Positions 12,311 to 46,083 are shown, numbered from the stretch's first letter. The stretch: DNA of 64,000 bases from Vicinamibacteria bacterium (GCA_035577965.1 DATJYX010000078.1:20590-84589); one strand, 5' to 3'. Numbers and translations: made by a program. Notes: generated from the sequence alone by a model not told the origin.

Positions 12311-13426
12311 ATGCACACTCCCGATGTCTCGGAGGTGCTCGGCGCCTCGGACCTCGAGGCCTTCGTCGGGCTCCCCTACGAGCTGCACCGTCGCGACCCC
12401 GGTTGGACGCCGATGCTGCGGCGAGACGTCCGGGTCCTCCTCGACCCCGCCCGCAACCCGTTCTTCGAGCACGCGGACCGCCGGCTCTTCCTGGCCCGCC
12501 TCGCCGGGCGCGTCGTCGGCCGCATCGCCGCGATCCACGACCGACTCCACGAGGAGACCCACGCCGACGGCGCGGGCTTCTTCGGCTTCTTCGAGAGCGT
12601 CGACGACGCGGCGGTGTCCTCCGCCCTCTTCGCCGCCGCCGCAGACTGGCTCCGCGGACGCGGCCGCGGGACGATGCGCGGCCCCGTCAATCCCTCGATC
12701 AACGACGAGGCCGGGCTCCTGGTGGACGGGTTCTCCTCCCCGGCCGTCCTCATGATGCCCCACAACCCGCGCTACTACCCGGCCCTCGTCGAGGCGGCGG
12801 GCTTCGTCAAGGCGAAGGACCTCCTCGCCTTCCAGAGCACCGGCACCACTCTTCCCGAGCGGCTCTCCGCCGCTGCCGAGGTCGTGCGCCGCCGGTACCA
12901 CGTCTGCCTCCGGTCCCTCGACATGAAGCGCTTCCGCGAGGAAGTGGGCCTCATCAAGGACCTCTTCAACGCGGGCTGGGAGAGGAACTGGGGCTACGTC
13001 CCCCTCACCGACCGCGAGATCGAGCATCTGGCGGGCCAGCTGAAACCGCTGGTCGTGCCACAGCTCGTGGCGTTCGCCGAGGCGGAGGGCAAGACGATCG
13101 GCTTCGCCGCCGCGATCCCGGACTTCAACGTGGCCCTGCGGAGGAACCCCTCGGGGCGGCTGTTCCCCGGCGTCCTGAAGATCCTCTGGGCCTCGCGGCG
13201 CATCACGCGGCTGCGGGTGCTGCTGCTCGGCGTGCTGCCGGAGTGGCAGGGGAGGGGCGTGGACGCGCTTCTCTACCGTCACATCTGGGAAAACGGGCGG
13301 GCGAGGGGCTTCGACTGGGCTGAGGCCGGCTGGATCCTGGAGGACAACCACGCCATGGTCAACGGCCTCGCCCGCATGGGCTTCGAGGTCTACAAGACCT
13401 ACCGCATCTACGAGAGGCCGATCTGA
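12311..13426 (+). CDS. GNAT-fold N-acyltransferase-like protein (two-lobed, about 370 aa family)
   Basis: The 371-aa ORF is a repeated acyl-CoA N-acyltransferase-like fold (GFFGFFES..., WQGRGVDALLY). An extended -10 TGTATAAG sits 11 nt upstream of the ATG. Confidence 0.55.
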   Translation: MHTPDVSEVLGASDLEAFVGLPYELHRRDPGWTPMLRRDVRVLLDPARNPFFEHADRRLFLARLAGRVVGRIAAIHDRLHEETHADGAGFFGFFESVDDAAVSSALFAAAADWLRGRGRGTMRGPVNPSINDEAGLLVDGFSSPAVLMMPHNPRYYPALVEAAGFVKAKDLLAFQSTGTTLPERLSAAAEVVRRRYHVCLRSLDMKRFREEVGLIKDLFNAGWERNWGYVPLTDREIEHLAGQLKPLVVPQLVAFAEAEGKTIGFAAAIPDFNVALRRNPSGRLFPGVLKILWASRRITRLRVLLLGVLPEWQGRGVDALLYRHIWENGRARGFDWAEAGWILEDNHAMVNGLARMGFEVYKTYRIYERPI

Positions 13427-14382
13427 GGGCGGCCGTCACCGGGGCCACGGGCTTCGTCGGCTCGCACCTGGTCGAGGCGCTCCGCGCGCGGGGCGACGCC
13501 GTCACCGCTCTCGTGCGCCGTTCGCAGCGCAGCGGGCCGGCCGGCTGCCGGATCGTCGAGGGAAGCCTCGAGGACGAGGGCGCCCGCCGCGCCCTCGTCG
13601 AGGGCCAGGACGTCCTCTACCACCTGGCCGGCCTCGTCGCCGCGCGAAAGCCGGCCGACTTCCAGCGCGTGAACGCGGACGGCGCGGCCGCCCTCGCCGC
13701 CGCCGCGGCGAGGGCCGGCGTGGGGCGCTTCCTGCTCGTCTCGTCCCTGGCCGTGACCGGTCCCTCGCGTCCCGGCCACCCGGTCGACGAGGCCTCCGGG
13801 CCGGGGCCAGTCACGACCTACGGGCGGAGCAAGCGCGCGGGGGAGGAGGCGGTCCGGGCCTCCGGCGTGCCGTTCACGATCGTGCGCCCGCCCGCCGTCT
13901 ACGGGCCGCGCGACCGCGCGTTCCTCGCCCTCTTCCGGTCGGCGGCGCGGGGCTTCGCGCCGCTCCTCGGCGACGGCACGCAGGAGCTGACCCTCGTCCA
14001 CGCCGCCGATCTCGCCCGGGCCCTCGTCGCCGCCGCCACGAGCGCGGCGACCGCAGGGGGCGTCTACCACGCCGGGCACGCCGAGCCGGTGACGCAGAGG
14101 GCCCTCGCCGAGGAGGTGGGACGGGCGGTCGGCCGCGCTGTCCACGCCATCTCCCTCCCCGGTCCGCTCGTGCGGGCCGCGCTGGGAGCGGCCGGCGTCG
14201 CGGCGCGGGCCCTCGGGAGGTCCCCCCTCCTGGATGGCGACAAGGCCAACGAGCTGCTCGCTCTCGGGTGGAGCTGCTCGAGCGCGGCCCTCCGGCGCGA
14301 CGCCTCGTGGTCGGCGGAGATCGCCTTGAGCGAGGGCCTGGCCGACACCGCCCGGGCCTACCGGCGGGCCGGATGGCTGTAG
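13423..14382 (+). CDS. NAD-dependent epimerase/dehydratase family protein (SDR, Rossmann fold)
   Basis: The Rossmann motif VTGATGFVGSHLV begins at 13432, upstream of the track's GTG at 13513. The only in-frame start candidate is CTG 13423, which overlaps the TGA stop of the preceding gene (CTGA). A YxxxK-like catalytic region (TTYGRSK) is present. Confidence 0.7.
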   Translation: MRAAVTGATGFVGSHLVEALRARGDAVTALVRRSQRSGPAGCRIVEGSLEDEGARRALVEGQDVLYHLAGLVAARKPADFQRVNADGAAALAAAAARAGVGRFLLVSSLAVTGPSRPGHPVDEASGPGPVTTYGRSKRAGEEAVRASGVPFTIVRPPAVYGPRDRAFLALFRSAARGFAPLLGDGTQELTLVHAADLARALVAAATSAATAGGVYHAGHAEPVTQRALAEEVGRAVGRAVHAISLPGPLVRAALGAAGVAARALGRSPLLDGDKANELLALGWSCSSAALRRDASWSAEIALSEGLADTARAYRRAGWL

Positions 14383-15230
14383 GCCCGCTCTCGCCCGTCG
14401 ACCGGGCGACCCTGGCCTATGTCGCCGTGGCCACCGGCTTCGACCTCGCCCGCGGTCCGCGCGGCGGTCTCGCGGGCGCGCTCCCCCCCCTCGGTTTGCT
14501 GCTGGTCGGCCTCGTCGCGTCGGTGCTCGCCCCTCGGGCCCGCCGCGCGGGCGCGCTCGGCCGGTTCCTCGCCGAGTTCTATCCGCTCGTGCTCGTGGTG
14601 GCGCTCTACACCCACGTCGGCCTGGTGAACGCCGCGGGCGGCGTCTCCCACGACGCTCTCGTCCAGGGGTGGGAGCAGGCGCTCTTCGGCGGGCAGCCCT
14701 CCCTCGGCTGGATCCGTGCGTTCCCGTCGCCGGCCTGGAGCACGCTGATGCACGCCGCGTATCTCTCGTACTACCTCGTCCTGGCCGGGGCGCCTCTCGG
14801 CCTCTGGTTGGGCGGCCGCCGTGACGCCGCGCGAGGCACCCTCTTCCTGGTGACGTCGACCTTCTACGCGTGCTACACGATCTCCTTCCTCTTCCCGGTC
14901 GCCGGGCCGCGCTACCTCTTCCCTCCCGCCGCGAACGCCGCCACCTCCGTGCCGCTCGCCGCCTTCGTGCGCCGCCTCCTCGAGAGAGGCTCCGCGTGGG
15001 GCACGGCCTTCCCCTCGTCCCACGTCGCCGCCGCCCTCGTCGCCGCCGCGTGCGCCTGGCGCGGACATCGGCCCCTCGGCCGCGCGCTCCTTCCCCTGGC
15101 GATCCTGCTGTCCCTCTCCACGGTCTACGGCCAGTTCCACTACGCCGTCGACGCCCTCGCCGGGGCCGCCCTCGCGACCGCCGCGCTCATCGCCGACCGC
15201 CGGGCGGGTTATGATTCCCCGCCACAATGA
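14373..15230 (+). CDS. PAP2-superfamily membrane protein (phosphatidic acid phosphatase type 2/haloperoxidase fold)
   Basis: Polytopic membrane protein with PAP2 motifs PSSH and HYAVDA (HxxxD). Met36 of track ORF 14268 (ATG 14373) overlaps the epimerase stop and gives a typical 286-aa protein. Confidence 0.7.
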   Translation: MAVGPLSPVDRATLAYVAVATGFDLARGPRGGLAGALPPLGLLLVGLVASVLAPRARRAGALGRFLAEFYPLVLVVALYTHVGLVNAAGGVSHDALVQGWEQALFGGQPSLGWIRAFPSPAWSTLMHAAYLSYYLVLAGAPLGLWLGGRRDAARGTLFLVTSTFYACYTISFLFPVAGPRYLFPPAANAATSVPLAAFVRRLLERGSAWGTAFPSSHVAAALVAAACAWRGHRPLGRALLPLAILLSLSTVYGQFHYAVDALAGAALATAALIADRRAGYDSPPQ

Positions 15231-15258
15231 ACACCGACACGTCCTCACTGGAGCATCG

Positions 15259-16965
15259 ATGACCCCACGCCTCGCCCTCGCCCTGGTCGCCTTCACCGCG
15301 CCTTCCGTCCTCGCCCAGGAGAAGCTCGACTGGGCGACCCTCGGCCGCATCCGCGACGAGGGCTTCCGCCGCTCGCAGGTCATGGAGACGGCGGCCCAGC
15401 TCACCGACGTCCACGGCCCGCGCCTCACCGGCTCGCCCCAGTACAAGGGCGCGGCCGACTGGGCGCGCCAGCAGCTCGAGACGTGGGGCCTCTCGAGCGC
15501 CCACCTCGAGAGCTGGCCGTTCGGACGGGGGTGGAGCTTCGAGCGCTGCTCCGCCCACGTCGTCTCGCCCACGACCTTCCCCCTCGTCGCTCTGCCGAAG
15601 GCGTGGACGGCGGGGACGAGCGGTCCCGTGCGGGGGAAGGTGATGCGGGTCAAGGCCGAGTCGGAGTCCGACGTCGAGGCGCTCAAGGGGAAGGTCGCGG
15701 GGATGGTCCTCTGGGTGGGCCAGCCTCGCGAGCTCAAGGGCCCCGAGGAGGGCGGAGTCTTCAAGCGCTACACCGAGAAGCAGCTCGACGAGATCGAGCA
15801 GTACCAGATCCCGGGGGCGCGGGGCGGGCGGGGGCCGATGGGCCCGGCGGACCGCGAGGCGTTCCTGAAGCGCCGCCGCCTGCAGCAGGCGCTCGAGAAG
15901 CTCTACGCGGCGGAGAAGCCGCTGGCCGTGTTCGAGCCCTCGGAGCGGGACGCGGACGTGCTGCGCCTCGGCGGGGGCGGCTCGCGCAAGGTCGGCGACC
16001 CCCAGGCGGTGACCCAGCTCGTGGTCGCGGCCGACGAGTGGAACCGCGTCGCCCGGCTCCTGGATCGGAAGCTGGACGTCGAGGTCGAGGTCGACGTCAA
16101 GGCCACCTTCCACGAGGAGGACACGAACGGCTACAACGTGGTGGCCGACGTTCCGGGCGCCGACCGGAAGGGCGAGCTGGTGATGGTCGGCGCCCACCTC
16201 GACTCCTGGCACCCCGGCACCGGCGCCACCGACAACGCGGCGGGGTCGGCGGTGATGCTGGAGGTCGTCCGCATCCTGAAGGCGATCGACGCGCGGCCGA
16301 GGCGAACGATCCGGATCGGCCTCTGGGGCGGCGAGGAGCAGGGCCTCCTGGGCTCGCGGGCCTACGTCGACGAGCACTTCGCCTCTCGGCCGGAGGCGAA
16401 GGAGCCGGGCCCGGACGAGCTGCCCGCCTACATGCGCAACGAGCCGCCGGCGCCGATGACGCTCAAGGCCGACCACGCGAAGGTCTCTGCCTACTTCAAC
16501 CTCGACAACGGCACCGGGAAGATCCGCGGGATCTACCTGCAGGAGAACGAGGCGGTGAAGCCGATCTTCGAGGCCTGGATGCAGTCCGTGAGGGACCTCG
16601 GCGCGACCCGGATCACGATGCGGAACACCGGCGGCACCGACCACCAGTCCTTCGACAGCGTGGGGCTGCCCGCCTTCCAGTTCATCCAGGACCCGATCGA
16701 GTACATGGACGGCACGTTCTTCGGCACCCACCACTCGAACATGGACGTGTACGACCGTCTGCAGAGAGAGGACCTGATGCAGGCCGCCGTCGTGATCGCG
16801 TCGTTCGCCTACGACGCGGCGATGCGCGACGAGCTGCTGCCCCGAAAGCCCCTGCCGCCGGTCGCCGCGCCTCCCGCGCCTCCCACGCCGGCGCGCAAGT
16901 CGGGCGCGAAGGGCGGCGCGCCGCGGGCCCCGAAGATCGTCGAGGCGCCGCCGGGCACGCGCTGA
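15259..16965 (+). CDS. M28-family zinc aminopeptidase, secreted
   Basis: Signal peptide MTPRLALALVAFTAPSVLAQ starts at Met17 of the track ORF. M28 motifs are present (HLDSW, DNAAGSAVMLE, GGEEQGLLGS). A GGAG SD lies 5 nt before ATG 15259. Confidence 0.8.
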   Translation: MTPRLALALVAFTAPSVLAQEKLDWATLGRIRDEGFRRSQVMETAAQLTDVHGPRLTGSPQYKGAADWARQQLETWGLSSAHLESWPFGRGWSFERCSAHVVSPTTFPLVALPKAWTAGTSGPVRGKVMRVKAESESDVEALKGKVAGMVLWVGQPRELKGPEEGGVFKRYTEKQLDEIEQYQIPGARGGRGPMGPADREAFLKRRRLQQALEKLYAAEKPLAVFEPSERDADVLRLGGGGSRKVGDPQAVTQLVVAADEWNRVARLLDRKLDVEVEVDVKATFHEEDTNGYNVVADVPGADRKGELVMVGAHLDSWHPGTGATDNAAGSAVMLEVVRILKAIDARPRRTIRIGLWGGEEQGLLGSRAYVDEHFASRPEAKEPGPDELPAYMRNEPPAPMTLKADHAKVSAYFNLDNGTGKIRGIYLQENEAVKPIFEAWMQSVRDLGATRITMRNTGGTDHQSFDSVGLPAFQFIQDPIEYMDGTFFGTHHSNMDVYDRLQREDLMQAAVVIASFAYDAAMRDELLPRKPLPPVAAPPAPPTPARKSGAKGGAPRAPKIVEAPPGTR

Positions 16966-16978
16966 TCGCCGAGAAGCG

Positions 16979-17452
16979 GTGACCTCGAACCTGTTCGCGT
17001 ACGGGACGCTGATGGCGGTGGAGGGCCTGCGCGAGGTCCTCGGCGCCCGCGCGGACGCCCTCGCCTTCCGTCCGGCCCGGCTGCCGGGCTGGCGACGCAT
17101 CTGGAACGTCTTCGCGACCGAGTGGCAGGGCGGCGTCCTCAACATCGAGCCCTGGCCGGCCGGGGTGGTGGTCGGCATCCTCATCGAGGGCCTCGCGGAC
17201 GAGGATGTCCAGGTCCTCGACGCGCAGGAGGCGACGCACCTCCCGCGCGAGACCGTGTACGTGGAGCCTTTCGGCGGCGACGTGGTGACGGCCCAGGTCT
17301 ACAGGCGGAAGAAGGGCAACCACGCCGGCAAGCCCTCGGGGCGGTACAAGACGGTCGTGCTGGATCGGGCCTACCGTGCGGGCTGGGAGGTCTACGAGAG
17401 CGTCTGCCGGGGGACCGTGGACTCGGCCGGGAACCCCCTGACGTTCGGATGA
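16979..17452 (+). CDS. gamma-glutamyl cyclotransferase-like (AIG2/GGCT family) protein
   Basis: N-terminal LFAYGTLM motif and a size of 157 aa. GTG start 13 nt after the M28 stop. Confidence 0.65.
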   Translation: MTSNLFAYGTLMAVEGLREVLGARADALAFRPARLPGWRRIWNVFATEWQGGVLNIEPWPAGVVVGILIEGLADEDVQVLDAQEATHLPRETVYVEPFGGDVVTAQVYRRKKGNHAGKPSGRYKTVVLDRAYRAGWEVYESVCRGTVDSAGNPLTFG

Positions 17453-21719: not shown

Positions 21720-23579
21720 TTGGCCGTCGTGGGCCCGGGCGTCGGCCTGCAGCGCCTCCTCCGCCTCCGCTGGGACCCGGCCCTCGTCGTCCCCCTCGGC
21801 CTGCTCTTCGCCGCCTTCGCCTACTGGCTGAACCTCGTCACCGGAGCGCCGTGGCTCTTCCCGCTCGCCGTCCTCGCCGCGGGCCTGCCCGTCCTGCGGC
21901 GCGGTCTCGCGAGGGACCGGGCCGAGGGCCCCTCTCTCCGCGGTGCTTTGCCCGCCGTGGGCGTGATCGTGGCCCTCCTGGCCGCGACGCAATACCGCGC
22001 CAACCGCCTCGGCCCGGACGGGAGCTTCCTCCTCGACGTCGGCGAGCACACCGACACCGCCGTGCACGTCGGCGTGTCGTGGGAGCTCGTGGCCGGCTAC
22101 CCGCCCCAGGTCCCCGGCCTCGCCGGGGTCCCGATGCGGTACCACGTCGGGAGCCACCTCGTGCGGGCCGCCGCTGCGCGCTGGGCCGGTGTCCACCCCT
22201 ACGACTCGATGAGCCGCTTCGACGTCACGCTTTGGGGCATCGCGCTCGTGCTCGCCCTGCGCGCCGCCGCGCAGGCCCTCGGCCTGGGGGCGACGGTCGT
22301 GCGTCTCGCCGGCTTCCTGCCCCTCGCCACCGACCTCTCCTTCCTGCCCGGGGCGCTCCTCGGCGCCGGGCACTGGGCGATGAAGCTGGGCGACAACCTC
22401 CTCGAGGGCGTCTTCTACGCGAACTCGATCTCGCCCGCCCTCGCGGTGGCGCTCGCCGCCCTCGTCGCGATCGCGCGGGCCTCCCGCGGCGAGGGCCGCC
22501 GCTGGCTGGTCCTCGCCTCCTTCCTCGGCGCCGGCGCCACGTTCCTGAAGGCGTTCACCGGCGCGCAGCTCCTCCTCGCCCTCGGCCTCGCGTGGCTCGT
22601 CCGGCGATCGTGGCCGCTCGCCGCGGTCGCCGTAGCGGTGGCCGCGGCGGTCGTACTCCTGGCCATGGGCTCGCTCGGCCCGGGGGCAGGGGAGACCGTC
22701 GAGGTCGCTTTCCGCCCCTTCGCGCCCACGAACCCGGCGCGCGTGGCGTTCGGCCTGCCCGCGGCGAGCGGTTTCGCCCTCGCGTGGTCGGGCGTCGCCT
22801 GGATCATCCTCTCTCTCGGCGTCCGGGCGGTCGGGATCCCGGGCGCCGTCCGGGGCCTCCGGGGAGGAGATCCGGCGACGGCAACGCTCGGCGCGCTCGC
22901 CCTCGTCGGCTGGCCGATCGCGCTCCTCGCCAGCGTCACCGCCGACCCCGGCTACGACGAGGGCTTCTACTTCCTGCAGGCGAGCGGCCTCGCGCTGTGG
23001 CTCTTCGCGGCCCGCGCCCTGGTCGACCTCGCCCGGAGGTCGCGGGCCGCCGTCGCCGTGCTCGTGCTCCTCGCCCTGCCTTCGACGGTCGAGCTCCTCG
23101 TCCGCCGAGCCCTCCAGGAGCCCGAACGCATCCCGGCTCCGATCGCCCGAGCCATGACGGCGCTGCGTGCGGCGAGCTGCCCCGGCGACGTGGTCCTGAT
23201 GCGGCCGAGCGTCGCCTTCGTCCCCCCGGTCGTCGTCCTCGCCGGCCGTCGGGTGCCCCTCGCCACCTTCTTCCCGTACTGGCGCCAGTTCACGACGCCC
23301 GCGTTCATGGCCGATCGGGAGAGGGCGGTGGCTTCGTTCTTCCGGGCCGGAGACGCGGAGTCCGCGCTCCGGGCGGCGCGCCGCCTGGGGGCGCGCTTCG
23401 CGGTGTTCGAGAGGCCTCCGAAAGAGCGCTCGCCGTCGGAGACGGGTCCCCGGCCGGCGCGCGACGCGCTCCTCGAAGCCGGCGCGCTCGCGCCCGTCCA
23501 CGTGGAGCCGGGCGCCGCCGTCTTCCGGCTCGTACCGCTCGCGCCGGAGGAGCGCTGCTCCTCGGCTCGCGGTCTATAA
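21720..23579 (+). CDS. hypothetical polytopic membrane protein (possibly GT-C-like glycosyltransferase fold)
   Basis: The 619-aa ORF has more than 10 predicted TM helices and a C-terminal soluble domain. It has a TTG start, and the true start is uncertain. The stop lies 10 nt before the kinase gene. Confidence 0.5.
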   Translation: MAVVGPGVGLQRLLRLRWDPALVVPLGLLFAAFAYWLNLVTGAPWLFPLAVLAAGLPVLRRGLARDRAEGPSLRGALPAVGVIVALLAATQYRANRLGPDGSFLLDVGEHTDTAVHVGVSWELVAGYPPQVPGLAGVPMRYHVGSHLVRAAAARWAGVHPYDSMSRFDVTLWGIALVLALRAAAQALGLGATVVRLAGFLPLATDLSFLPGALLGAGHWAMKLGDNLLEGVFYANSISPALAVALAALVAIARASRGEGRRWLVLASFLGAGATFLKAFTGAQLLLALGLAWLVRRSWPLAAVAVAVAAAVVLLAMGSLGPGAGETVEVAFRPFAPTNPARVAFGLPAASGFALAWSGVAWIILSLGVRAVGIPGAVRGLRGGDPATATLGALALVGWPIALLASVTADPGYDEGFYFLQASGLALWLFAARALVDLARRSRAAVAVLVLLALPSTVELLVRRALQEPERIPAPIARAMTALRAASCPGDVVLMRPSVAFVPPVVVLAGRRVPLATFFPYWRQFTTPAFMADRERAVASFFRAGDAESALRAARRLGARFAVFERPPKERSPSETGPRPARDALLEAGALAPVHVEPGAAVFRLVPLAPEERCSSARGL

Positions 23580-23588: not shown

Positions 23589-26282
<2,694 letters not shown>

Positions 26283-28520: not shown

Positions 28521-29132
28521 GTGATGGCGCTCTGGACCGACCCGCGCATCCCGCTGCTGGGACCGAACGTGCAGCGCGCCCACGGTCGTCTCGCGGCCGC
28601 GGTCGGGCGCTTCATGATGGGCGTCCGGGGCTGGCGCGTCGAGGGGGAGTTCCCGGACATCCCGCGGATGGTGCTCATCGTCGCCCCCCACACCTCGAAC
28701 TGGGACTTCCTGACCGGCCTGTGGGTGAAGCTGGCCATGCGCATCGGAGGGAGCTTCGTGGGCAAGCACACGCTCTTCCGGTGGCCGCTCGGCATCTTCA
28801 TGCGGTGGCTCGGCGGCGTGCCGGTGGACCGGTCGGCCGCGGCCGGCTTCGTGGAGGAGGCGGCCCGCGTGCTCCGGGACTCGGAGCGAATGACCCTGGT
28901 CATCGCGCCCGAGGGCACGCGGAAGCGCGCCGGCCGATGGAAGTCGGGCTTCTACCGCATCGCCGTGGTGGCCGGCGTCCCCATTCTCCTCGCCGGGTTC
29001 GACTACTCCCGGAAGGTCGTCCGCTTCGGGCCGCTCTTCCACCCCACCGGAGACTACGAGAAGGACTTGCCCGCGATCCAGGCGCACTACCGCGCCGGGA
29101 TGGCCCTCAAGCCGGAGAACTACGGCTCGTAG
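28521..29132 (+). CDS. lysophospholipid acyltransferase (PlsC-like 1-acyl-sn-glycerol-3-phosphate acyltransferase family)
   Basis: HX4D motif (HTSNWD) and APEGTR motif; 203 aa. Confidence 0.75.
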   Translation: MMALWTDPRIPLLGPNVQRAHGRLAAAVGRFMMGVRGWRVEGEFPDIPRMVLIVAPHTSNWDFLTGLWVKLAMRIGGSFVGKHTLFRWPLGIFMRWLGGVPVDRSAAAGFVEEAARVLRDSERMTLVIAPEGTRKRAGRWKSGFYRIAVVAGVPILLAGFDYSRKVVRFGPLFHPTGDYEKDLPAIQAHYRAGMALKPENYGS

Positions 29133-29174: not shown

Positions 29175-29960
29175 TCAGTCGCCGTCACCGTCTCCGATGA
29201 CGTCCTCGAGGTGGCGGAGAAGCCGGGCGCCCGCCTCCTTGCTGTAGGGCTTCGCGTAGAAGTCCTCGAGCTCGAGCGGGGGGTGGATCTTGAGCGAGCA
29301 CCGCTTGAAGAGCTTGCCCGGCACCTGCTTGTGCAGGAGGAGGTCGCGGAACCCGTCGACGCGCACCGGCAGCGCCACCGCCCTCGTGTTGTGGAGGAGC
29401 CGCGACACCCCGGAGCGCAGGGGCGCGCCCTTCTTCGTGGTGCCGGCGGGGAAGTGGAGCAGCCAGCCGTCGTGGATCGCCTCCTCGACGCGCGCGACCC
29501 CGTCCATGTCCACCGGTCGGCGGACGTCCACCCCGCCCTCCCGGAAGCTGCGCCTGAACGTCACTCCTCCGGCGAGGGTCATGAGCTTGGTGAGGAGGTT
29601 CTGCTTCATCGTCTCCTCCGCGGCAGAGAAGCGGAGGACCGGGTCCTCGAGCGGGAGCTGGTGGCGGACGTAGACGAGGTCGAAGAAGGCGAGGGCCTCG
29701 AGGAAGTACGTCTGGTGGTTGGCCAGGAAGGCGACGTTCATCCGGGGCAGGTCCTTCAGGACCTCGTCGCCTTCGACCTGGACGTCGTTGAGGATGGCGA
29801 GATAGGGGACGGTGAAGCCGACCCCGAAGCCGGCGAGCAGGCCCCGCCGCAGCCACCGGTTCAGGAACGTCCGGGCCGCTTTCTCGGGGAGCACGCCCCC
29901 CAGGAGCTTCACTCCCGGGATCGCGCCGACGAGCCCGTTGGCCAGACCTCGTGCACCCAT
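29175..29960 (-). CDS. lysophospholipid acyltransferase family protein (divergent LPLAT)
   Basis: The 261-aa ORF has an NHQTYFLE (HX4E-type) motif and an FPAGTTKKG motif of glycerolipid acyltransferases. Confidence 0.6.
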   Translation of the reverse strand: MGARGLANGLVGAIPGVKLLGGVLPEKAARTFLNRWLRRGLLAGFGVGFTVPYLAILNDVQVEGDEVLKDLPRMNVAFLANHQTYFLEALAFFDLVYVRHQLPLEDPVLRFSAAEETMKQNLLTKLMTLAGGVTFRRSFREGGVDVRRPVDMDGVARVEEAIHDGWLLHFPAGTTKKGAPLRSGVSRLLHNTRAVALPVRVDGFRDLLLHKQVPGKLFKRCSLKIHPPLELEDFYAKPYSKEAGARLLRHLEDVIGDGDGD

Positions 29961-32962: not shown

Positions 32963-35290
32963 TCAGAAGAGCGAGAGCTGCCGCTTCGAGCCGGACGCGT
33001 CGTCGAAGTCCTGGCCGAGGAGGGCCAGGACCGGCTCCGCGACCGGCCGCAGCTGCCGCTCGACGTAGTGCTCGTGGTCGATCGGGTGCCGCCTCTCGTC
33101 GGCTGGCTCGGGCCCGTCGGTGGTGATCACGTAGGCCACGCGGCCGCGCCTCTTCCCCGGCATCTTCCGGGCCGCCGCCACGTGGGGCGGGGTCGTCGCG
33201 GTGTAGGCCTCGGGCACCTTGCGGAGGGCCTTGCGGTAGACGAGCCGGTCGTCGAAGCGGCCCTGGCGCAGGCCCAAGACGACCTCCCGCAGGTAGTCGA
33301 GGACGGGCCGGTCGGTGAAGAGCCGGGCGTAGAGCTCGCGCTGGACGTGCCGGGCGAGGTCGGTCCAGTCGCCGCGCACGGCCTCCATGCCGGTGAAGGC
33401 GACCTCCTCGCCGCCGGGCCCGTCGACGAGGCCGGCGTACCGCTTGCGCGCGCCCGACGTGCCGTGGCGCACGGCGGGGAGGAAGAGCCGGAGATAGAGC
33501 CGGTCGAAGGCCAGCTCGAGACGGCTCGCCACGTGCCAGCGGTCCGCGACGTGCCGGGCGACTTCGCGGTTGACGCGCGCCACGAGCGCCTCGCCGACGG
33601 CGCGAGCGGCGACACGATCGCCCGCCCCGGTCTCCACGAAGAGGCTGTCGGTGTCGCCGTACAGGACCCGCCGCCCGTCCTCCTCGATCCGGGCCCGGCA
33701 CCAGAGGAGGATCTCGCGGCCGAAGGACGTGATGGCGTTGGCGAGGCGCGGGTCGTAGAAGCGGCAGGCCGGCGTCCCGAGGACCCCGTAGAAGGAGTTC
33801 ATCAGGATCTTGATCGCGTGACTCGTCACGCTGTCGCCCGCCCGGCGGGCCTGCTCGCGGCGGGGCGTGAGCTCGTCGAGGAGCTCGCTCAGGATGCCCT
33901 TCCGCCGCGCGAAGGCGGCGCCGCTCGGGGCCCGGATGGGATCGGCGTCCGTCTGGCCGGCCTCGGGTCGGACGAGGTTCAGGGGGTCGATCTCGAAGGT
34001 GCGGATGAGGGTCGGGTAGAGGCTCTTGAAGTCGAGCACGACCACGTTCGCGTGGAGCCCGGGAACGGGCTCGAGGACGTGTCCCCCGGCCTGCGGCTCG
34101 ACGAGCTCGACCTCCCCCCGGACGCTCGGGGCCACGACCCCGCGCCGCCCGAGGGCGGAGAGGTAGAGGAAGTCGAAGGCGGCGATCGAGGACGCGACGC
34201 GGTCGAGGGGAAGGCCGGTCAGCCGGCTGCGCTCGACGGCGAGCTCGACGAGGCGGAGCCGCTCGAGCACGTCGAGGGCGAGGCGGGCGTCCGTCCGGTT
34301 GTACTCCACGAGGCGGGCGCGGTCCTCCTCGAAGAGGCGCAGGATCTCCTCGGCGCGTCCTCGCCCGGCGATGGTCTTGCCCTCGCCGAGGACCGAGCGG
34401 GCCACCGCGTCGAGGCCGTAGTCCTCCATGCGGACGAAGGCCCCTCGCAGCAGGTGGATCCCGTCGAGGACCACCCGGCCGGGGACGGTCGCCCGGCGCG
34501 TCCCCCGCAGCGCGCCCTCGGCCCGGAGGCGGAGGGCTCCGGGCCCTCGTCCCAGCTCGAGCGGCGCCCCGTGCCGGGCCGCGATCCGGTCGAGAACCGC
34601 CAGGTCGAAGTCGACGACGTTCCAGCCGGTGAGCACGTCGGGGTCGAGCTCGCGCACGCGCCGGCAGAAGCCGGTCAGCAGCTCCTTCTCCGTCGCGAAC
34701 GGCCGCGCGCCGTCCGGGCAGCTCTTCCCGGGGGGCGTGAGGAGCAGCACCTCCGAGGCACCGCAGCCGTGGAGGGAGACGGCGAGGAGGCGGCGGGCCG
34801 CGGGGTCGGTCTCGATGTCGAAGGAAAGGACGGTGAGCCGTGGGGTCCAGTCGGCGGGCCCGATCTCGGGATCCTCGAAGACGAGGCCGAGGCCGGGCGC
34901 GTCCCGTCCTTCGCCACGGATCTCGAGGGCGCCCCGGATCCCCCGGTCGATCAGGGGCCGCAGCGCGAAGCGGACGTCGGCCTCGTGGGTCGGGATGCCG
35001 GCTCTCGCCAGGCGCTCGCGGAGCGGTGGAACGTCGGCCGGCTCCTGGACCTCGACGCGCACGACGGGCCGGCCGAGCGGCGTGACGTGGCTCGTCGGGG
35101 CCTGCCTCCGCGCTCCCGCGTCCCTCGCCCGCTCGGCGTCGTCCGCCTCGACGTAGAAGCGGGGGACCTGCCGCCGGTCGCGCACGAGGAAGGGGCGGCC
35201 GTCCTCGAGGCGTCCGAAGAGGTGGAGAACGGGAACGCCCGACTCCACGCGGTACGTGGGCTGCAGGATGAACCCGCGGGACGAAGGCAT
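32963..35290 (-). CDS. polB: DNA polymerase II (family B DNA polymerase)
   Basis: The 775-aa ORF has exonuclease motifs (FDIETD), polymerase motif A region DFKSLYPTLIRTFEIDP, motif C YGDTDS and a KKRYAG-like motif. A GGAG SD is present and TAGACT lies 44 nt upstream. Confidence 0.85.
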   Translation of the reverse strand: MPSSRGFILQPTYRVESGVPVLHLFGRLEDGRPFLVRDRRQVPRFYVEADDAERARDAGARRQAPTSHVTPLGRPVVRVEVQEPADVPPLRERLARAGIPTHEADVRFALRPLIDRGIRGALEIRGEGRDAPGLGLVFEDPEIGPADWTPRLTVLSFDIETDPAARRLLAVSLHGCGASEVLLLTPPGKSCPDGARPFATEKELLTGFCRRVRELDPDVLTGWNVVDFDLAVLDRIAARHGAPLELGRGPGALRLRAEGALRGTRRATVPGRVVLDGIHLLRGAFVRMEDYGLDAVARSVLGEGKTIAGRGRAEEILRLFEEDRARLVEYNRTDARLALDVLERLRLVELAVERSRLTGLPLDRVASSIAAFDFLYLSALGRRGVVAPSVRGEVELVEPQAGGHVLEPVPGLHANVVVLDFKSLYPTLIRTFEIDPLNLVRPEAGQTDADPIRAPSGAAFARRKGILSELLDELTPRREQARRAGDSVTSHAIKILMNSFYGVLGTPACRFYDPRLANAITSFGREILLWCRARIEEDGRRVLYGDTDSLFVETGAGDRVAARAVGEALVARVNREVARHVADRWHVASRLELAFDRLYLRLFLPAVRHGTSGARKRYAGLVDGPGGEEVAFTGMEAVRGDWTDLARHVQRELYARLFTDRPVLDYLREVVLGLRQGRFDDRLVYRKALRKVPEAYTATTPPHVAAARKMPGKRRGRVAYVITTDGPEPADERRHPIDHEHYVERQLRPVAEPVLALLGQDFDDASGSKRQLSLF

Positions 35291-39518: not shown

Positions 39519-40388
39519 CTAGCGCCCGGTCGTGAGGGCGTCCCCGGGAGCGATTCCCCTCTCGGCCTTGCCGTAGTCGAGCTCGCTCCCGCGCAGGCTG
39601 TGGGGGACGACGTACACGGCGAGCATGACGAGCGCCGCGAGGACGGCCGTCCCCCGCGCGACGCGGTCGGCCGGGTCCGGCCGCCGCCCGAGGACGACCG
39701 CGGCCGCCACCCAGGCCAGCCACATGGCGAGCGTCTTGTCGTCGGTCAGGTCCCCGCCGAACGGCCACCCCGTCCAGAGCGCGCCGAAGGCGAGCTTCTG
39801 GACGATCGGCCCCAGGACCAGCCCCCCGATACCGATTCCGACCACGGCGACCCACGCGTAGCGCCGGGCCTCGGGCCGGCCGAAGGCGGCGGCGAGGGCG
39901 GCCCGGACGCCGATCATCATCGACAGGAACATGGTCACCACGTGCGGGACGAGCACGAGCGCCGGCACGTCGCCCTTGAAGCGCATGACGACGGGCGCCC
40001 CCTCGGGGACCCGGACCGGGCCCGCGGGCGTCGCGAGCGTCACGTCGTACTCCAGCTTCCCCGCCGGCGGCTGGGTCGGGAGGAGGCCCACGAGCGTCTC
40101 GCCCTCGCGGCTCATCGCGACCTCCCGGAAGAGATCGGCGGTCGGGTAGCGGCGGTAGCGCACGACGCCCGTCACCCCTGGCGGCGCCTGCACCACCACC
40201 ATGAGCGGCTCGCCCGACGTTGCGCTGCGCAGGAGCCGCCACCTCACCGGCCGTCCGGCGACGACGGTCGTGCCGAGGCGCGGGTGCGTGGGGCCGGTCA
40301 GGCGCTGCCAGACCGCGGCGCCCACCATGAGGAGGAGCGCGGCGATCCAGAGCAGGACGGCCGATCGATGGCTTCGCGGATCAGGCAC
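39519..40388 (-). CDS. hypothetical membrane protein (1 TM + periplasmic domain + 4 TM), downstream of znuB-like gene
   Basis: The 289-aa ORF has hydrophobic helices flanking a soluble domain of about 100 aa. No recognised family. Confidence 0.45.
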   Translation of the reverse strand: MPDPRSHRSAVLLWIAALLLMVGAAVWQRLTGPTHPRLGTTVVAGRPVRWRLLRSATSGEPLMVVVQAPPGVTGVVRYRRYPTADLFREVAMSREGETLVGLLPTQPPAGKLEYDVTLATPAGPVRVPEGAPVVMRFKGDVPALVLVPHVVTMFLSMMIGVRAALAAAFGRPEARRYAWVAVVGIGIGGLVLGPIVQKLAFGALWTGWPFGGDLTDDKTLAMWLAWVAAAVVLGRRPDPADRVARGTAVLAALVMLAVYVVPHSLRGSELDYGKAERGIAPGDALTTGR

Positions 40389-43823: not shown

Positions 43824-43852
43824 ACTCTATCCAAGGGTCCCCAGCCGGTCAA
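43824..43852 (-). promoter_or_regulatory. sigma70-like promoter TTGACC-17 nt-TAGAGT on the minus strand, overlapping the selD stop codon, followed by a roughly 220-nt leader before the OMP-znuAB genes
   Basis: The -35 (43852..43847) contains the TGA of selD, and the -10 is at 43829..43824. The first downstream start codon is at 43597. Confidence 0.4.
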
Positions 43853-46083
43853 TCGACCTCTCCGCTTCGAGAGAAGACGCGGATCCGGCCCGGGCCGGGG
43901 GTGGTGAAGCGCCCCACGCGCCGGCATTCCTCCACCCCGCGCGCCCGGAGCGCGTGGAGGAGGGCTTCTGTCCGCTCCCGAGGCACGGCGATCAGGAGGC
44001 CGCCGGACGTCTGGGCGTCGGCGAGGAGGACGCGGTCGACGCGGGAGAGGTCGGGCGCCCACTCCACGAAGGGAGAGACGTGCTCGAGGTTGTCGAGCGT
44101 GCCCCCCGGCACGGCGTCGGCCGCGACCAGCTCCCTTGCCGGCTCCAGCACCGGCACCGCGCCCGCCTCCAGCTCGGCGTCGAGGGAGGAGGCCACGGCC
44201 ATCTCCCGCAGGTGCCCGAGGAGGCCGAAGCCGGTCACGTCGGTGCAGGCGTCGGCTCCGACCTCCAGCATCGCCTCGGCGGCGGCGCGGTTCAACCGCC
44301 GCATCGTGGCGACCGCGCGGCGCGCGACCGTCTCGTCGGCCAGGCCGCGCTTCACCGCCGTGGCGAGGATGCCCGTCCCGATCGGCTTGGTGAGGACCAG
44401 CGAGTCGCCCGCCCGCGCGCCTGCGTTCTTCACCACGCGGTCCGGCCGCACCACTCCCGTCACGGCGAGGCCGAACTTCGGCTCCGTGTCGTCCACGGTG
44501 TGCCCGCCGACGATGCAGACGCCCGCCTCCCGCGCCACCTCCGCCGCTCCCTCGAGGATGCGCTCGAGGACGCTCAGGGGCAGGCGGCGGGACGGGAACC
44601 CGACGACGCTCAGCGCGAAGAGGGGCTTCGCCCCCATCGCATAGACGTCGCTCAGGGAGTTCGCCGCGCTGACCGCGCCGAAGTCGAACGGGTCGTCGGC
44701 GATCGGGGTGAAGAAGTCGACGGTCGAGACGAGGGCGAGATCGGGACCGAGCCGGTAGACGGCGGCGTCGTCCGCGGTCGAGGCGTCGACCAGGACGGCC
44801 GGGTCGGTGACCTTCGGCAGCTTCTTCAGCACCTGCTCGAGGTCCTGGGGACGCAGCTTGCAGGCGCAGCCCAGGCCGTGGGTGAAGCGGGTGAGCCGGA
44901 TCGTCTCGTCCCGCCCCTCCACCGCGACCGACGGCCGGGTCTCCGGTCGGAGACGGCGAACGGCCTCGGCCACGATCCCGACCGCCTCGTCGATCTCCCG
45001 CTCCGTCGTGCCCCGCCCCACCGAGAAGCGCAGCGTGCCCATGGCGTAGCGCATGGGCACCCGCATCGCTTCGAGGACGGTCGAGAGGTCGACCCCCTGC
45101 GCGTGGCACGCCGCGCCCGCCGAAGCGGCGAGCCTCTCCCCGATCTCGGCGAGGAGCGTGCTCGCCTCGACCCCTCCGATGCCGACGCTGAGTGTGTTGG
45201 GCAGGGCCGCCTCGACGCTGCCGTTGCGGCGCAGGTCGCCGATCTCCCGCGAGAGCCCCTCCCAGAGTCGGTCGCGCAGGGTCGCGAAGTGGCGGCCGTT
45301 CGCCTCGAGGTTCCTCCGCGCGATCGCGCAGGCCTCGCCCAGCCCCACGATCTCGAGCACGTTCTCCGTCCCCGCCCGGCGTCCCGCCTCGTGGCCGGCG
45401 CCCAGGATGAGCCGCGGCGCTTCCACGCCCGAGCGGACGTAGAGCGCGCCGACGCCCTTCGGCGCATAGAGCTTGTGGCCGGCGAGGCTCAGGAAGTCGA
45501 CCCCCAGCTCGCCGACGTCCACCGGGATCTTGCCCGGCGACTGGGCGGCGTCGGTGTGGACGAGGATGCCCCGCTCGCGGGCGAGGCGGGAGATCTCCGC
45601 GATCGGCTGGATCGTCCCCACCTCGTTGTTCGCGTGCATGATCGTGACGAGGATCGTCTCCGGCGTGAGGGCTCTCGCCACGTCGGCGGGGTCCACGCGG
45701 CCCTCCTCGTCGACGGGGACGCGGGTGATCCTGTAGCCCTCGGCGCCGAGGGCGGCGCACGGCTCGAGGACCGCCGGGTGCTCGACGGCCGAGGTGACGA
45801 CGTGGCGTCCCCGGGCGCGCAGTCGGCGGACCACGCCGAGGATCACCGTGTTGCTGGCCTCCGAGCCCCCGCTCGTGAACACGATCTCCTCGGGCCGGGC
45901 GCCGAGGAGGCCCGCCACCTGGAGGCGGGCCTTCTCTACGGCGAGCCGAGCCGCCGCCCCGTACGGGTGGCTGCTCGAGGGGTTGCCGAAGTGCTCGTAG
46001 AGGAAGGGGAGCATCGCCTCGGCCACGGCGGGGTCGACGGGCGTCGTGGCGTTGTAGTCGAGGTAGATCGGGCGATCGGTCAC
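43849..46083 (-). CDS. selD: fusion protein: NifS-like cysteine desulfurase/selenocysteine lyase (N-terminal) + selenide, water dikinase SelD (C-terminal)
   Basis: A GTG at 46083 (residue 289 of the track ORF) starts a class-V aminotransferase domain (IYLDYNATTP, PLP-lysine SLAGHKLYAPKGVGALYVR, active-site Cys ASAGAACHA). This runs continuously into SelD (TRFTHGLGCACKL with Cys at the Sec/Cys position, DVTGFGLLGHL). No stop separates the two halves. The GTG overlaps the TGA stop of the upstream MBL gene. Confidence 0.8.
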   Translation of the reverse strand: MTDRPIYLDYNATTPVDPAVAEAMLPFLYEHFGNPSSSHPYGAAARLAVEKARLQVAGLLGARPEEIVFTSGGSEASNTVILGVVRRLRARGRHVVTSAVEHPAVLEPCAALGAEGYRITRVPVDEEGRVDPADVARALTPETILVTIMHANNEVGTIQPIAEISRLARERGILVHTDAAQSPGKIPVDVGELGVDFLSLAGHKLYAPKGVGALYVRSGVEAPRLILGAGHEAGRRAGTENVLEIVGLGEACAIARRNLEANGRHFATLRDRLWEGLSREIGDLRRNGSVEAALPNTLSVGIGGVEASTLLAEIGERLAASAGAACHAQGVDLSTVLEAMRVPMRYAMGTLRFSVGRGTTEREIDEAVGIVAEAVRRLRPETRPSVAVEGRDETIRLTRFTHGLGCACKLRPQDLEQVLKKLPKVTDPAVLVDASTADDAAVYRLGPDLALVSTVDFFTPIADDPFDFGAVSAANSLSDVYAMGAKPLFALSVVGFPSRRLPLSVLERILEGAAEVAREAGVCIVGGHTVDDTEPKFGLAVTGVVRPDRVVKNAGARAGDSLVLTKPIGTGILATAVKRGLADETVARRAVATMRRLNRAAAEAMLEVGADACTDVTGFGLLGHLREMAVASSLDAELEAGAVPVLEPARELVAADAVPGGTLDNLEHVSPFVEWAPDLSRVDRVLLADAQTSGGLLIAVPRERTEALLHALRARGVEECRRVGRFTTPGPGRIRVFSRSGEVD

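Follow-up and report, generated by a model that had tools for sequence, protein, structure and literature searches.

A probable three-gene sphingolipid operon in a Vicinamibacteria-like soil acidobacterium

Results

Organization of the locus

Five genes, here called G1 to G5, follow one another on a 64,000-nt stretch of DNA (the window; 73% G+C) whose proteins have their closest named relatives in Vicinamibacteria (Acidobacteriota). The first three encode an N-acyltransferase, an extended short-chain dehydrogenase/reductase (SDR) and a membrane enzyme resembling inositol phosphorylceramide (IPC) synthase (Table 1), and we propose, with a probability of roughly 0.8, that together (12311-15230) they constitute a sphingolipid operon of three genes in a Vicinamibacteria-like soil acidobacterium. 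An earlier note, made from the sequence alone, had grouped all five genes into a candidate lipid-modification module.

Table 1. Features of the locus, with positions counted from the first nucleotide of the window
Feature	Position	Strand	Description
G1	12311-13426	+	371 aa; bacterial ceramide synthase family (bCerS / YghO / CC_1154), tandem-GNAT N-acyltransferase
G2	13423-14382	+	319 aa from CTG; ceramide reductase family (CerR / CC_1164-like), extended SDR
CTGA stop/start overlap, G1/G2	13423-13426	+	putative non-canonical CTG start of G2
G3	14373-15230	+	285 aa; PAP2_3 (Aur1/IPC-synthase-like) polytopic membrane phosphotransferase; predicted ceramide head-group transferase
G4	15259-16965	+	secreted-type M28 metallopeptidase; co-directional neighbour outside conserved unit
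G5	16979-17452	+	GGACT/AIG2-like (GGCT-like) protein; co-directional neighbour outside conserved unit

A check of the open reading frames (ORFs) reproduced the tight packing that the note had described, with gaps of -4, -10, +28 and +13 nt, although the -4 overlap depends on the use of the CTG as the start of G2. An alternative in-frame ATG for G4 at 15211 would change the G3/G4 gap from +28 to -20. The domain classes proposed for all five genes were likewise borne out by Pfam, with matches of G2 to Epimerase (1.5e-39), G3 to PAP2_3 (1.4e-17; 64.6 bits against a gathering cut-off of 27), G4 to Peptidase_M28 (1e-32) and G5 to GGACT (1.4e-7), and a weak match of G1 to Acetyltransf_1 confined to residues 253-358. 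G1, G3 and G5 matched no model in a search of NCBIfam, and a promoter and terminator scan returned a signal no stronger than that in shuffled sequence. Tight co-directional packing by itself is ordinary in bacteria; the signal beyond chance is the conservation of G1-G2-G3 across phyla, not the packing.

G1 belongs to the bacterial ceramide synthase family

In a tblastn search of PLSDB, G1 aligned with E. coli YghO at 37% identity across residues 6-371 (E 1e-81), YghO being the single G1 match per whole E. coli chromosome in that database. YghO (ECD_02850) is listed as the orthologue of Caulobacter CC_1154 under the entry 'aca' (PMC9386255), and CC_1154 (cerS) and CC_1164 (cerR) are both needed for dihydroceramide synthesis in Caulobacter (PMC11324152). 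The description of G1 as a two-lobed GNAT agrees with its AlphaFold model (pLDDT 94), which is a duplicated GNAT with tandem GNATs as its best Protein Data Bank (PDB) matches (Foldseek E 1e-11 to 1e-14, TM 0.56-0.62); a sequence search of the PDB gave nothing usable. With these tandem GNATs (MshD mycothiol synthase, MAB_4324, clavulanate CBG and GlmA) G1 has the duplicated fold in common but not the family, as identity is 11-14% and their substrates and genomic context are unrelated. G1 thus groups with cerS and YghO and not with unrelated acetyltransferases.

In two natural fusions, P0135 and P0225, an alpha-oxoamine synthase at the N-terminus is followed by a G1 domain at the C-terminus; the synthase moiety gives 363 bits against the serine palmitoyltransferase (Spt) structure 3A2B and 260 bits against KBL. 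P0135 (L087:8001-10343), 780 aa long, has an SDR gene and a PAP2_3 gene at its flanks, and P0225 is N-truncated. Taken together, the fusions with Spt, the homology to YghO and the orthology drawn in the literature place G1 in the bacterial ceramide synthase (bCerS) family, with N-acylation of a sphingoid base as its predicted activity.

The family is large (8138 clusters at 50% identity, E <= 1e-3), nearly all of its members being 365-390 aa long. The ratio of nonsynonymous to synonymous substitution rates (dN/dS) of G1 against relatives was 0.22-0.33, and the values of 0.22-0.44 obtained for G1, G2 and G3 against four relatives indicate purifying selection on all three genes. The G1/YghO family has no dedicated Pfam family, only a marginal generic GNAT match, and no NCBIfam model for G1; E. 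coli YghO itself matched no Pfam family at E<0.001. The lack of a curated model in either database accounts for the generic or wrong labels that members of the YghO/CC_1154 family carry, namely 'N-acetyltransferase', 'dATP pyrophosphohydrolase', 'hypothetical protein' or 'protein YghO' (Roseomonas plasmids in PLSDB; E. coli yghO at L086:8974-10113).

Two further architectures were seen in the family. P0122 (784 aa) is a tandem of two G1-family domains. A plasmid of Streptomyces sp. NBC_01001 (L085:6766-11292) has an operon of an Spt-like aminotransferase, a GNAT with 41% identity to G1, an epimerase and a condensation-domain protein, an arrangement which points to further acylation or aminoacylation of a sphingolipid-like backbone.

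G2 belongs to the ceramide reductase family and appears to start at CTG

G2 aligns over its full length with the epimerase of the E. coli spt operon (30% identity over 310 residues, E 2e-39), and the entry 'epi' gives this protein, ECD_02852, as the orthologue of CC_1164 (PMC9386255). The Rossmann motif GATGFVG and the YGRSK form of YxxxK are both intact. For an SDR, 30% identity is a moderate value, and the assignment of G2 as an extended SDR of the ceramide reductase (CerR) family, for which reduction of the 3-keto group is predicted, therefore rests to a large extent on gene linkage. As a candidate HpnA sugar epimerase G2 was rejected, its score of 99.4 bits lying far under the cut-off of 367.65.

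The first ATG, GTG or TTG in the G2 frame lies at 13513, and a start at that position would remove GATGFVG. The sequence GAGAGG is located 5 nt upstream of the CTG at 13423. The G1/G2 junction reads CTGA in the window and in three related loci (L001, L083 and L084) and ATGA or GTGA in Gemmatimonadota, and those relatives in which G2 has a separate start use GTG (L002) or ATG (L104, L112) for the same N-terminal residue. These features suggest that translation of G2 begins at a CTG sharing nucleotides with the G1 stop codon and that the two genes are translationally coupled. Public gene calls of G2 in Vicinamibacteria relatives are 209-276 aa, i.e. 40-110 residues short, and have lost the Rossmann motif, a systematic truncation by gene callers that we attribute to the CTG start within the CTGA overlap.

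G3 resembles Aur1 and IPC synthase

In an alignment of 23 G3 sequences, PSSH (H217) and HYxxD (H256, D260) were invariant. The same sequences hold no invariant Lys or Arg, the loop at the C1 position reading FPVAGP(R/N/Y/H)Y, and the phosphatase C1 motif KxxxxxxRP is therefore missing; G3 was accordingly rejected as an LpxE/PgpB phosphatase. A His-His-Asp set without the C1 Lys/Arg is typical of sphingomyelin and IPC synthases: yeast Aur1/IPC synthase (9vj4, 9ivc), BT_1522 and SMSr (8ijq) have the PAP2_3 domain, the His of PSxH and HYxxD in common with G3, and AFPSSH and HYAVD of G3 align with AFPSLH and HYFVD of Aur1.

The AlphaFold model of G3 (pLDDT 84) found as its top PDB fold match the IPC synthase-ceramide structure 9vj4_A (TM 0.59/0.60, 291 columns), followed by Aur1-Kei1 (9ivc_A) and human SMSr with ceramide (8ijq_A), with modest E-values (2e-3). 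PgpB and LpxE ranked lower, with shorter, partial alignments, and a plain sequence search of the PDB gave nothing usable. Gemmatimonadales predominated among the best 120 hits listed by a profile search with G3. From its family, motifs and modelled fold, G3 is predicted to be a ceramide head-group transferase of the Aur1/IPC-synthase branch of the PAP2 superfamily. The helices of the model and the Arg-rich loops at residues ~54-65, 147-153 and 232-236 would, by the positive-inside rule, place the active site on the periplasmic face.

An Aur1 homologue of Bacteroides thetaiotaomicron, BT_1522, is a proven phosphatidylinositol (PI)-dihydroceramide synthase (PMC9246714). Because no inositol-synthesis genes turned up among the window ORFs scanned, phosphoethanolamine or phosphoglycerol is more likely than phosphoinositol as the head group that G3 would transfer.

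Gene neighbourhoods in other phyla

A comparative set of one genome per species was scanned with the G1 alignment and yielded at least 80 loci, none of them from Vicinamibacteria among the matches listed. The 80 listed loci represent at least eight phylum-level groups, including Gemmatimonadota, Eisenbacteria, Ignavibacteria, Bacteroidota, Binatia, Zixibacteria and Myxococcota. An Spt-like gene lay directly upstream of the G1 homologue on the same strand in 66 of the 72 loci with enough upstream sequence, and nearby in three more. A G2-like SDR was found near the G1 homologue in 54/61 loci and a G3-like PAP2_3 gene in 40/61, the latter coming after the SDR in 36 of 39 Gemmatimonadota loci and three of four Eisenbacteria loci. 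No homologue of the M28, GGACT, 4HBT, RRM or PNPOx genes was present near G1 in any of the 80. The neighbouring synthase scored best as Spt in L007, with 417 bits to Spt 3A2B and 321 to 2JG2, as against 278 to KBL and ~230 to BioF. G1-G2-G3 is thus kept as a unit across phyla, and its linkage with Spt in those phyla is plain.

The Spt-bCerS-CerR(-PAP2_3) clusters of Gemmatimonadota and Eisenbacteria (L003-L062) hold the closest orthologues outside Vicinamibacteria (identities of 56-61% for G1, ~50% for G2 and ~50-58% for G3). They have the G1-G2-G3 order and an NTGA overlap of G1 and G2 in common with the window but differ from it in having Spt directly upstream, in starting G2 with ATG or GTG instead of CTG and in having neither M28 nor GGACT.

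Two variants of these neighbourhoods were observed. In four loci from Bacteroidota, Ignavibacteria and Chlorobiota (L049, L063, L070 and L082; e.g. L070:11100-12020), a class IV aminotransferase of the branched-chain amino acid type follows the ceramide synthase gene and replaces the SDR/PAP2_3 pair; it may connect the supply of iso-branched acyl groups with sphingolipid synthesis. In nine Gemmatimonadota loci (L003:7987-8736, minus strand, and eight others), Spt is immediately preceded by a classical PAP2 gene (PF01569, SGH-type motif) on the other strand, besides the downstream PAP2_3 gene.

Discussion

Proposed pathway

Spt is the committed enzyme of sphingolipid synthesis. In the route that we propose, Spt would make the long-chain base and G1, a soluble tandem GNAT, would add an amide-linked fatty acid, after which G2, as an NAD(P)H-dependent extended SDR, would reduce the 3-keto group to give dihydroceramide. 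The ceramide would be flipped before the last step, in which G3 would take a phospho-head group from a donor glycerophospholipid (phosphatidylethanolamine, phosphatidylglycerol or PI) and attach it to the C1 hydroxyl of ceramide, yielding a phosphosphingolipid and diacylglycerol. Whether acylation or reduction comes first is disputed even for Caulobacter (PMC11087976). The earlier note had likened the GNAT to a ceramide synthase, the SDR to a ceramide or 3-ketosphinganine reductase and the PAP2 protein to an IPC-synthase-like enzyme, and homology, the adjacency to Spt, the fusions and the fold of G3 all argue for these identifications.

Several observations weigh against this proposal. First, G1 and G2 are linked to Caulobacter CC_1154 and CC_1164 through the literature-assigned E. 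coli orthologues, YghO and the spt-operon epimerase. Second, Caulobacter CerR is reported to be periplasmic (PMC11087976), whereas the start of G2 lies only 5 residues ahead of the Rossmann motif and no signal peptide is apparent. Third, the similarity of G3 to Aur1 in sequence is marginal (profile E 0.016), the LpxE phosphatase giving 0.001. Fourth, G3 may be dispensable in some relatives: it is deleted in two related metagenome contigs whose G1 is ~77% identical, one of which retains only residues 1-30 and 241-282 after an internal deletion (L092:2373-2663) and the other only a 131-nt gap between G2 and the M28 gene (L094:3447-3578). Either the head-group step is dispensable there or the loss is an assembly artefact. 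Finally, there is no Spt in the 64-kb window, as the earlier note had said, a tblastn search with Sphingomonas Spt (checked against PDB 2JG2) having given noise only; nor is there an Spt within 10 kb of any Vicinamibacteria-type copy (L001, L002, L083, L084 and the metagenome loci with G1 at least 70% identical). This last result leaves the substrate supply of the three enzymes unproven.

The question of serine palmitoyltransferase

All loci with G1 at least 70% identical to that of the window have an RRM gene divergent upstream and no Spt, while loci with G1 at most 61% identical are of the Gemmatimonadota type, with Spt. Co-localization of Spt, bCerS and CerR is a hallmark of bacterial sphingolipid producers, although linkage is not obligatory and Spt is unlinked in Bacteroidota and other groups (PMC11334938). 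The conserved 3-keto reductase points to de novo synthesis rather than salvage, and Spt is probably encoded elsewhere in the genome.

The alternative that survives best, though we regard it as unlikely, is that the three genes work without Spt, by salvaging exogenous sphingoid bases or ceramides or by acting on an amino-lipid backbone of another kind, for instance a sulfonolipid of the capnine type, a 1-deoxy base or whatever a different alpha-oxoamine synthase produces. Besides the missing Spt, this alternative can draw on the CerS-based salvage route that has been raised as a possibility (PMC11324152) and on related alpha-oxoamine synthases that use cysteate (PDB 28eh was among the structure matches). 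Salvage would need no 3-keto reductase, however, yet G2 is under purifying selection, and an IPC-synthase-like transferase would need a free C1 hydroxyl, i.e. a serine-derived base and not capnine or a 1-deoxy base. In addition, the closest orthologues, in Gemmatimonadales and ~60% identical, adjoin an enzyme that scores best as Spt, and the unlinked Spt genes cited above show a distant location to have precedent. There is similarly a small chance that Vicinamibacteria keep a selected bCerS-CerR-IPC-synthase-like operon without Spt and either scavenge long-chain bases from soil fungi or plants or make them with an unrecognised non-Spt enzyme. Were Spt indeed absent from Vicinamibacteria, bacteria would have a route to sphingolipids that does not depend on serine palmitoyltransferase.

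Extent of the conserved unit

Next to be weighed is the improbable case that all five genes form one functional module, for example one that makes and trims an amino-acid- or peptide-decorated lipid. All five run in one direction and overlap or are separated by 28 nt at most, the same five-gene order occurs in L001, L002, L084 and L088, and the M28 gene stays beside G2 where G3 has been lost (L092 and L094). L001 and L002 are uninformative on functional linkage, however, because their synteny with the window extends over 20 kb. Within Vicinamibacteria the G1-G2-G3 order is kept while the downstream genes vary: L083 has neither M28 nor GGACT and passes from G3 directly to a thioesterase gene, L104 has GGACT without M28, and L119 has M28 without GGACT. 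This independent presence or absence marks the two genes as accessory neighbours. Both are also missing from all 80 loci in other phyla, where Spt-GNAT-SDR is retained and PAP2_3 may or may not be present. Moreover, the N-terminus of G4 from 15259 is signal-peptide-like, i.e. of the secretion type, and neither the M28 nor the GGACT protein is tied to lipids.

Of the five-gene lipid-modification module, then, G1-G2-G3 stands, and the M28 and GGCT-like genes fall away. These two genes and the downstream YciA-like thioesterase gene are lineage-specific neighbours with no tie to the pathway, although they may be co-transcribed with the three sphingolipid genes.

Weakest of all, and very improbable, is a role in lipid A or glycerophospholipid head-group remodelling or in hopanoid metabolism (an LpxE/PgpB-type PAP2, an HpnA- or ArnA-like SDR and an acetyltransferase GNAT), for which one could cite HpnA (TIGR03466, 1.8e-28) as the best NCBIfam match of G2, LpxE as the best PDB sequence-profile match of G3 and two PF01553 acyltransferases 11 kb downstream, but against which stand the missing C1 Lys/Arg of G3, its best full-length alignment with IPC synthase (TM 0.59) as opposed to partial ones with LpxE and PgpB, the co-occurrence of G1-G2-G3 across phyla with Spt and not with lpx, arn or hpn genes, and the unrelated genes that separate the acyltransferases from G1-G2-G3.

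Comparison with characterized systems

The sphingolipid operon proposed here uses the same N-acylation and 3-keto-reduction families as Caulobacter crescentus (Spt CC_1162, CerS CC_1154 = CCNA_01212, CerR CC_1164; PMC11324152 and PMC11087976), in which cerS also lies outside the spt operon. It differs in that cerS, cerR and a PAP2_3 gene stand in one operon with no spt nearby. Pfam scans of 29 of the other window ORFs found no acyl carrier protein (ACP), acyl-AMP ligase, acpR/aasR or lptF/lptG paralogues, of which the acpR/aasR and lptF/G genes set Caulobacter apart from the window. Ceramide phosphoglycerate is made in Caulobacter via CC_1158-1161, CC_1152 and CC_1153, and the term PAP2 does not occur in PMC11324152.

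The E. coli homologues of G1 and G2 described above come from the yghO cluster of strains B/BL21 and PN43 (ECD_02850-02854; PMC9386255). In PN43, yghO is divergent from an operon of a fatty acyl-AMP ligase, an epimerase, an ACP and an aminotransferase (aasR-epi-acpR-spt) and lies beside lptF/lptG paralogues. Unlike the window, the E. coli cluster has no PAP2_3 gene. E. coli K-12 does not carry the cluster in intact form.

Significance

Vicinamibacteria and Gemmatimonadota are widespread soil bacteria, and to our knowledge their lipids are known almost solely from a few cultures. If the sphingolipid operon proposed here is real, both groups combine an as yet uncharacterised Aur1-like head-group transferase with the Spt/bCerS/CerR pathway and are candidate sources of soil ceramides and phosphosphingolipids, and G3 offers a specific candidate for a phosphoceramide synthase in bacteria other than Bacteroides.

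The pathway is already known, as is its broad distribution across phyla (nine in 2022, about 40 later; PMC11334938), and the three genes add a new lineage to it. As far as the literature searched shows, four elements are new, namely Vicinamibacteria as a proposed lineage for the ceramide pathway, a bCerS-CerR-PAP2_3 operon without an adjoining Spt, the Gemmatimonadota cluster of four genes (Spt-bCerS-CerR-PAP2_3) and the Spt::bCerS fusion. These should be useful for annotation, given a synthase family without a model and a truncated reductase, and for soil lipid biology, and would come as no surprise to a specialist.

Other features of the window

The two acyltransferases that the earlier note had placed about 11 kb downstream are real; they match PF01553 and lie at 28521-29132 (plus strand) and 29175-29960 (minus strand). 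Elsewhere in the window, the minus strand encodes a 744-aa class V aminotransferase (NifS/selenocysteine-lyase-like) fused to AIR-synthase-related N and C domains (SelD-like; 43849-46083), which may be a selenium- or sulfur-activating enzyme, and a 775-aa bacterial, chromosomal family B DNA polymerase with an exonuclease domain (32963-35290). On the plus strand, an 897-aa Ser/Thr protein kinase is fused to PD40/DPPIV-type beta-propeller repeats (23589-26282). Two ORFs with high G+C at third codon positions matched no Pfam family, one of 289 aa at 39519-40388 (minus strand) and one of 619 aa at 21720-23579 (plus strand), the position of the latter being conserved in L083 and L084.

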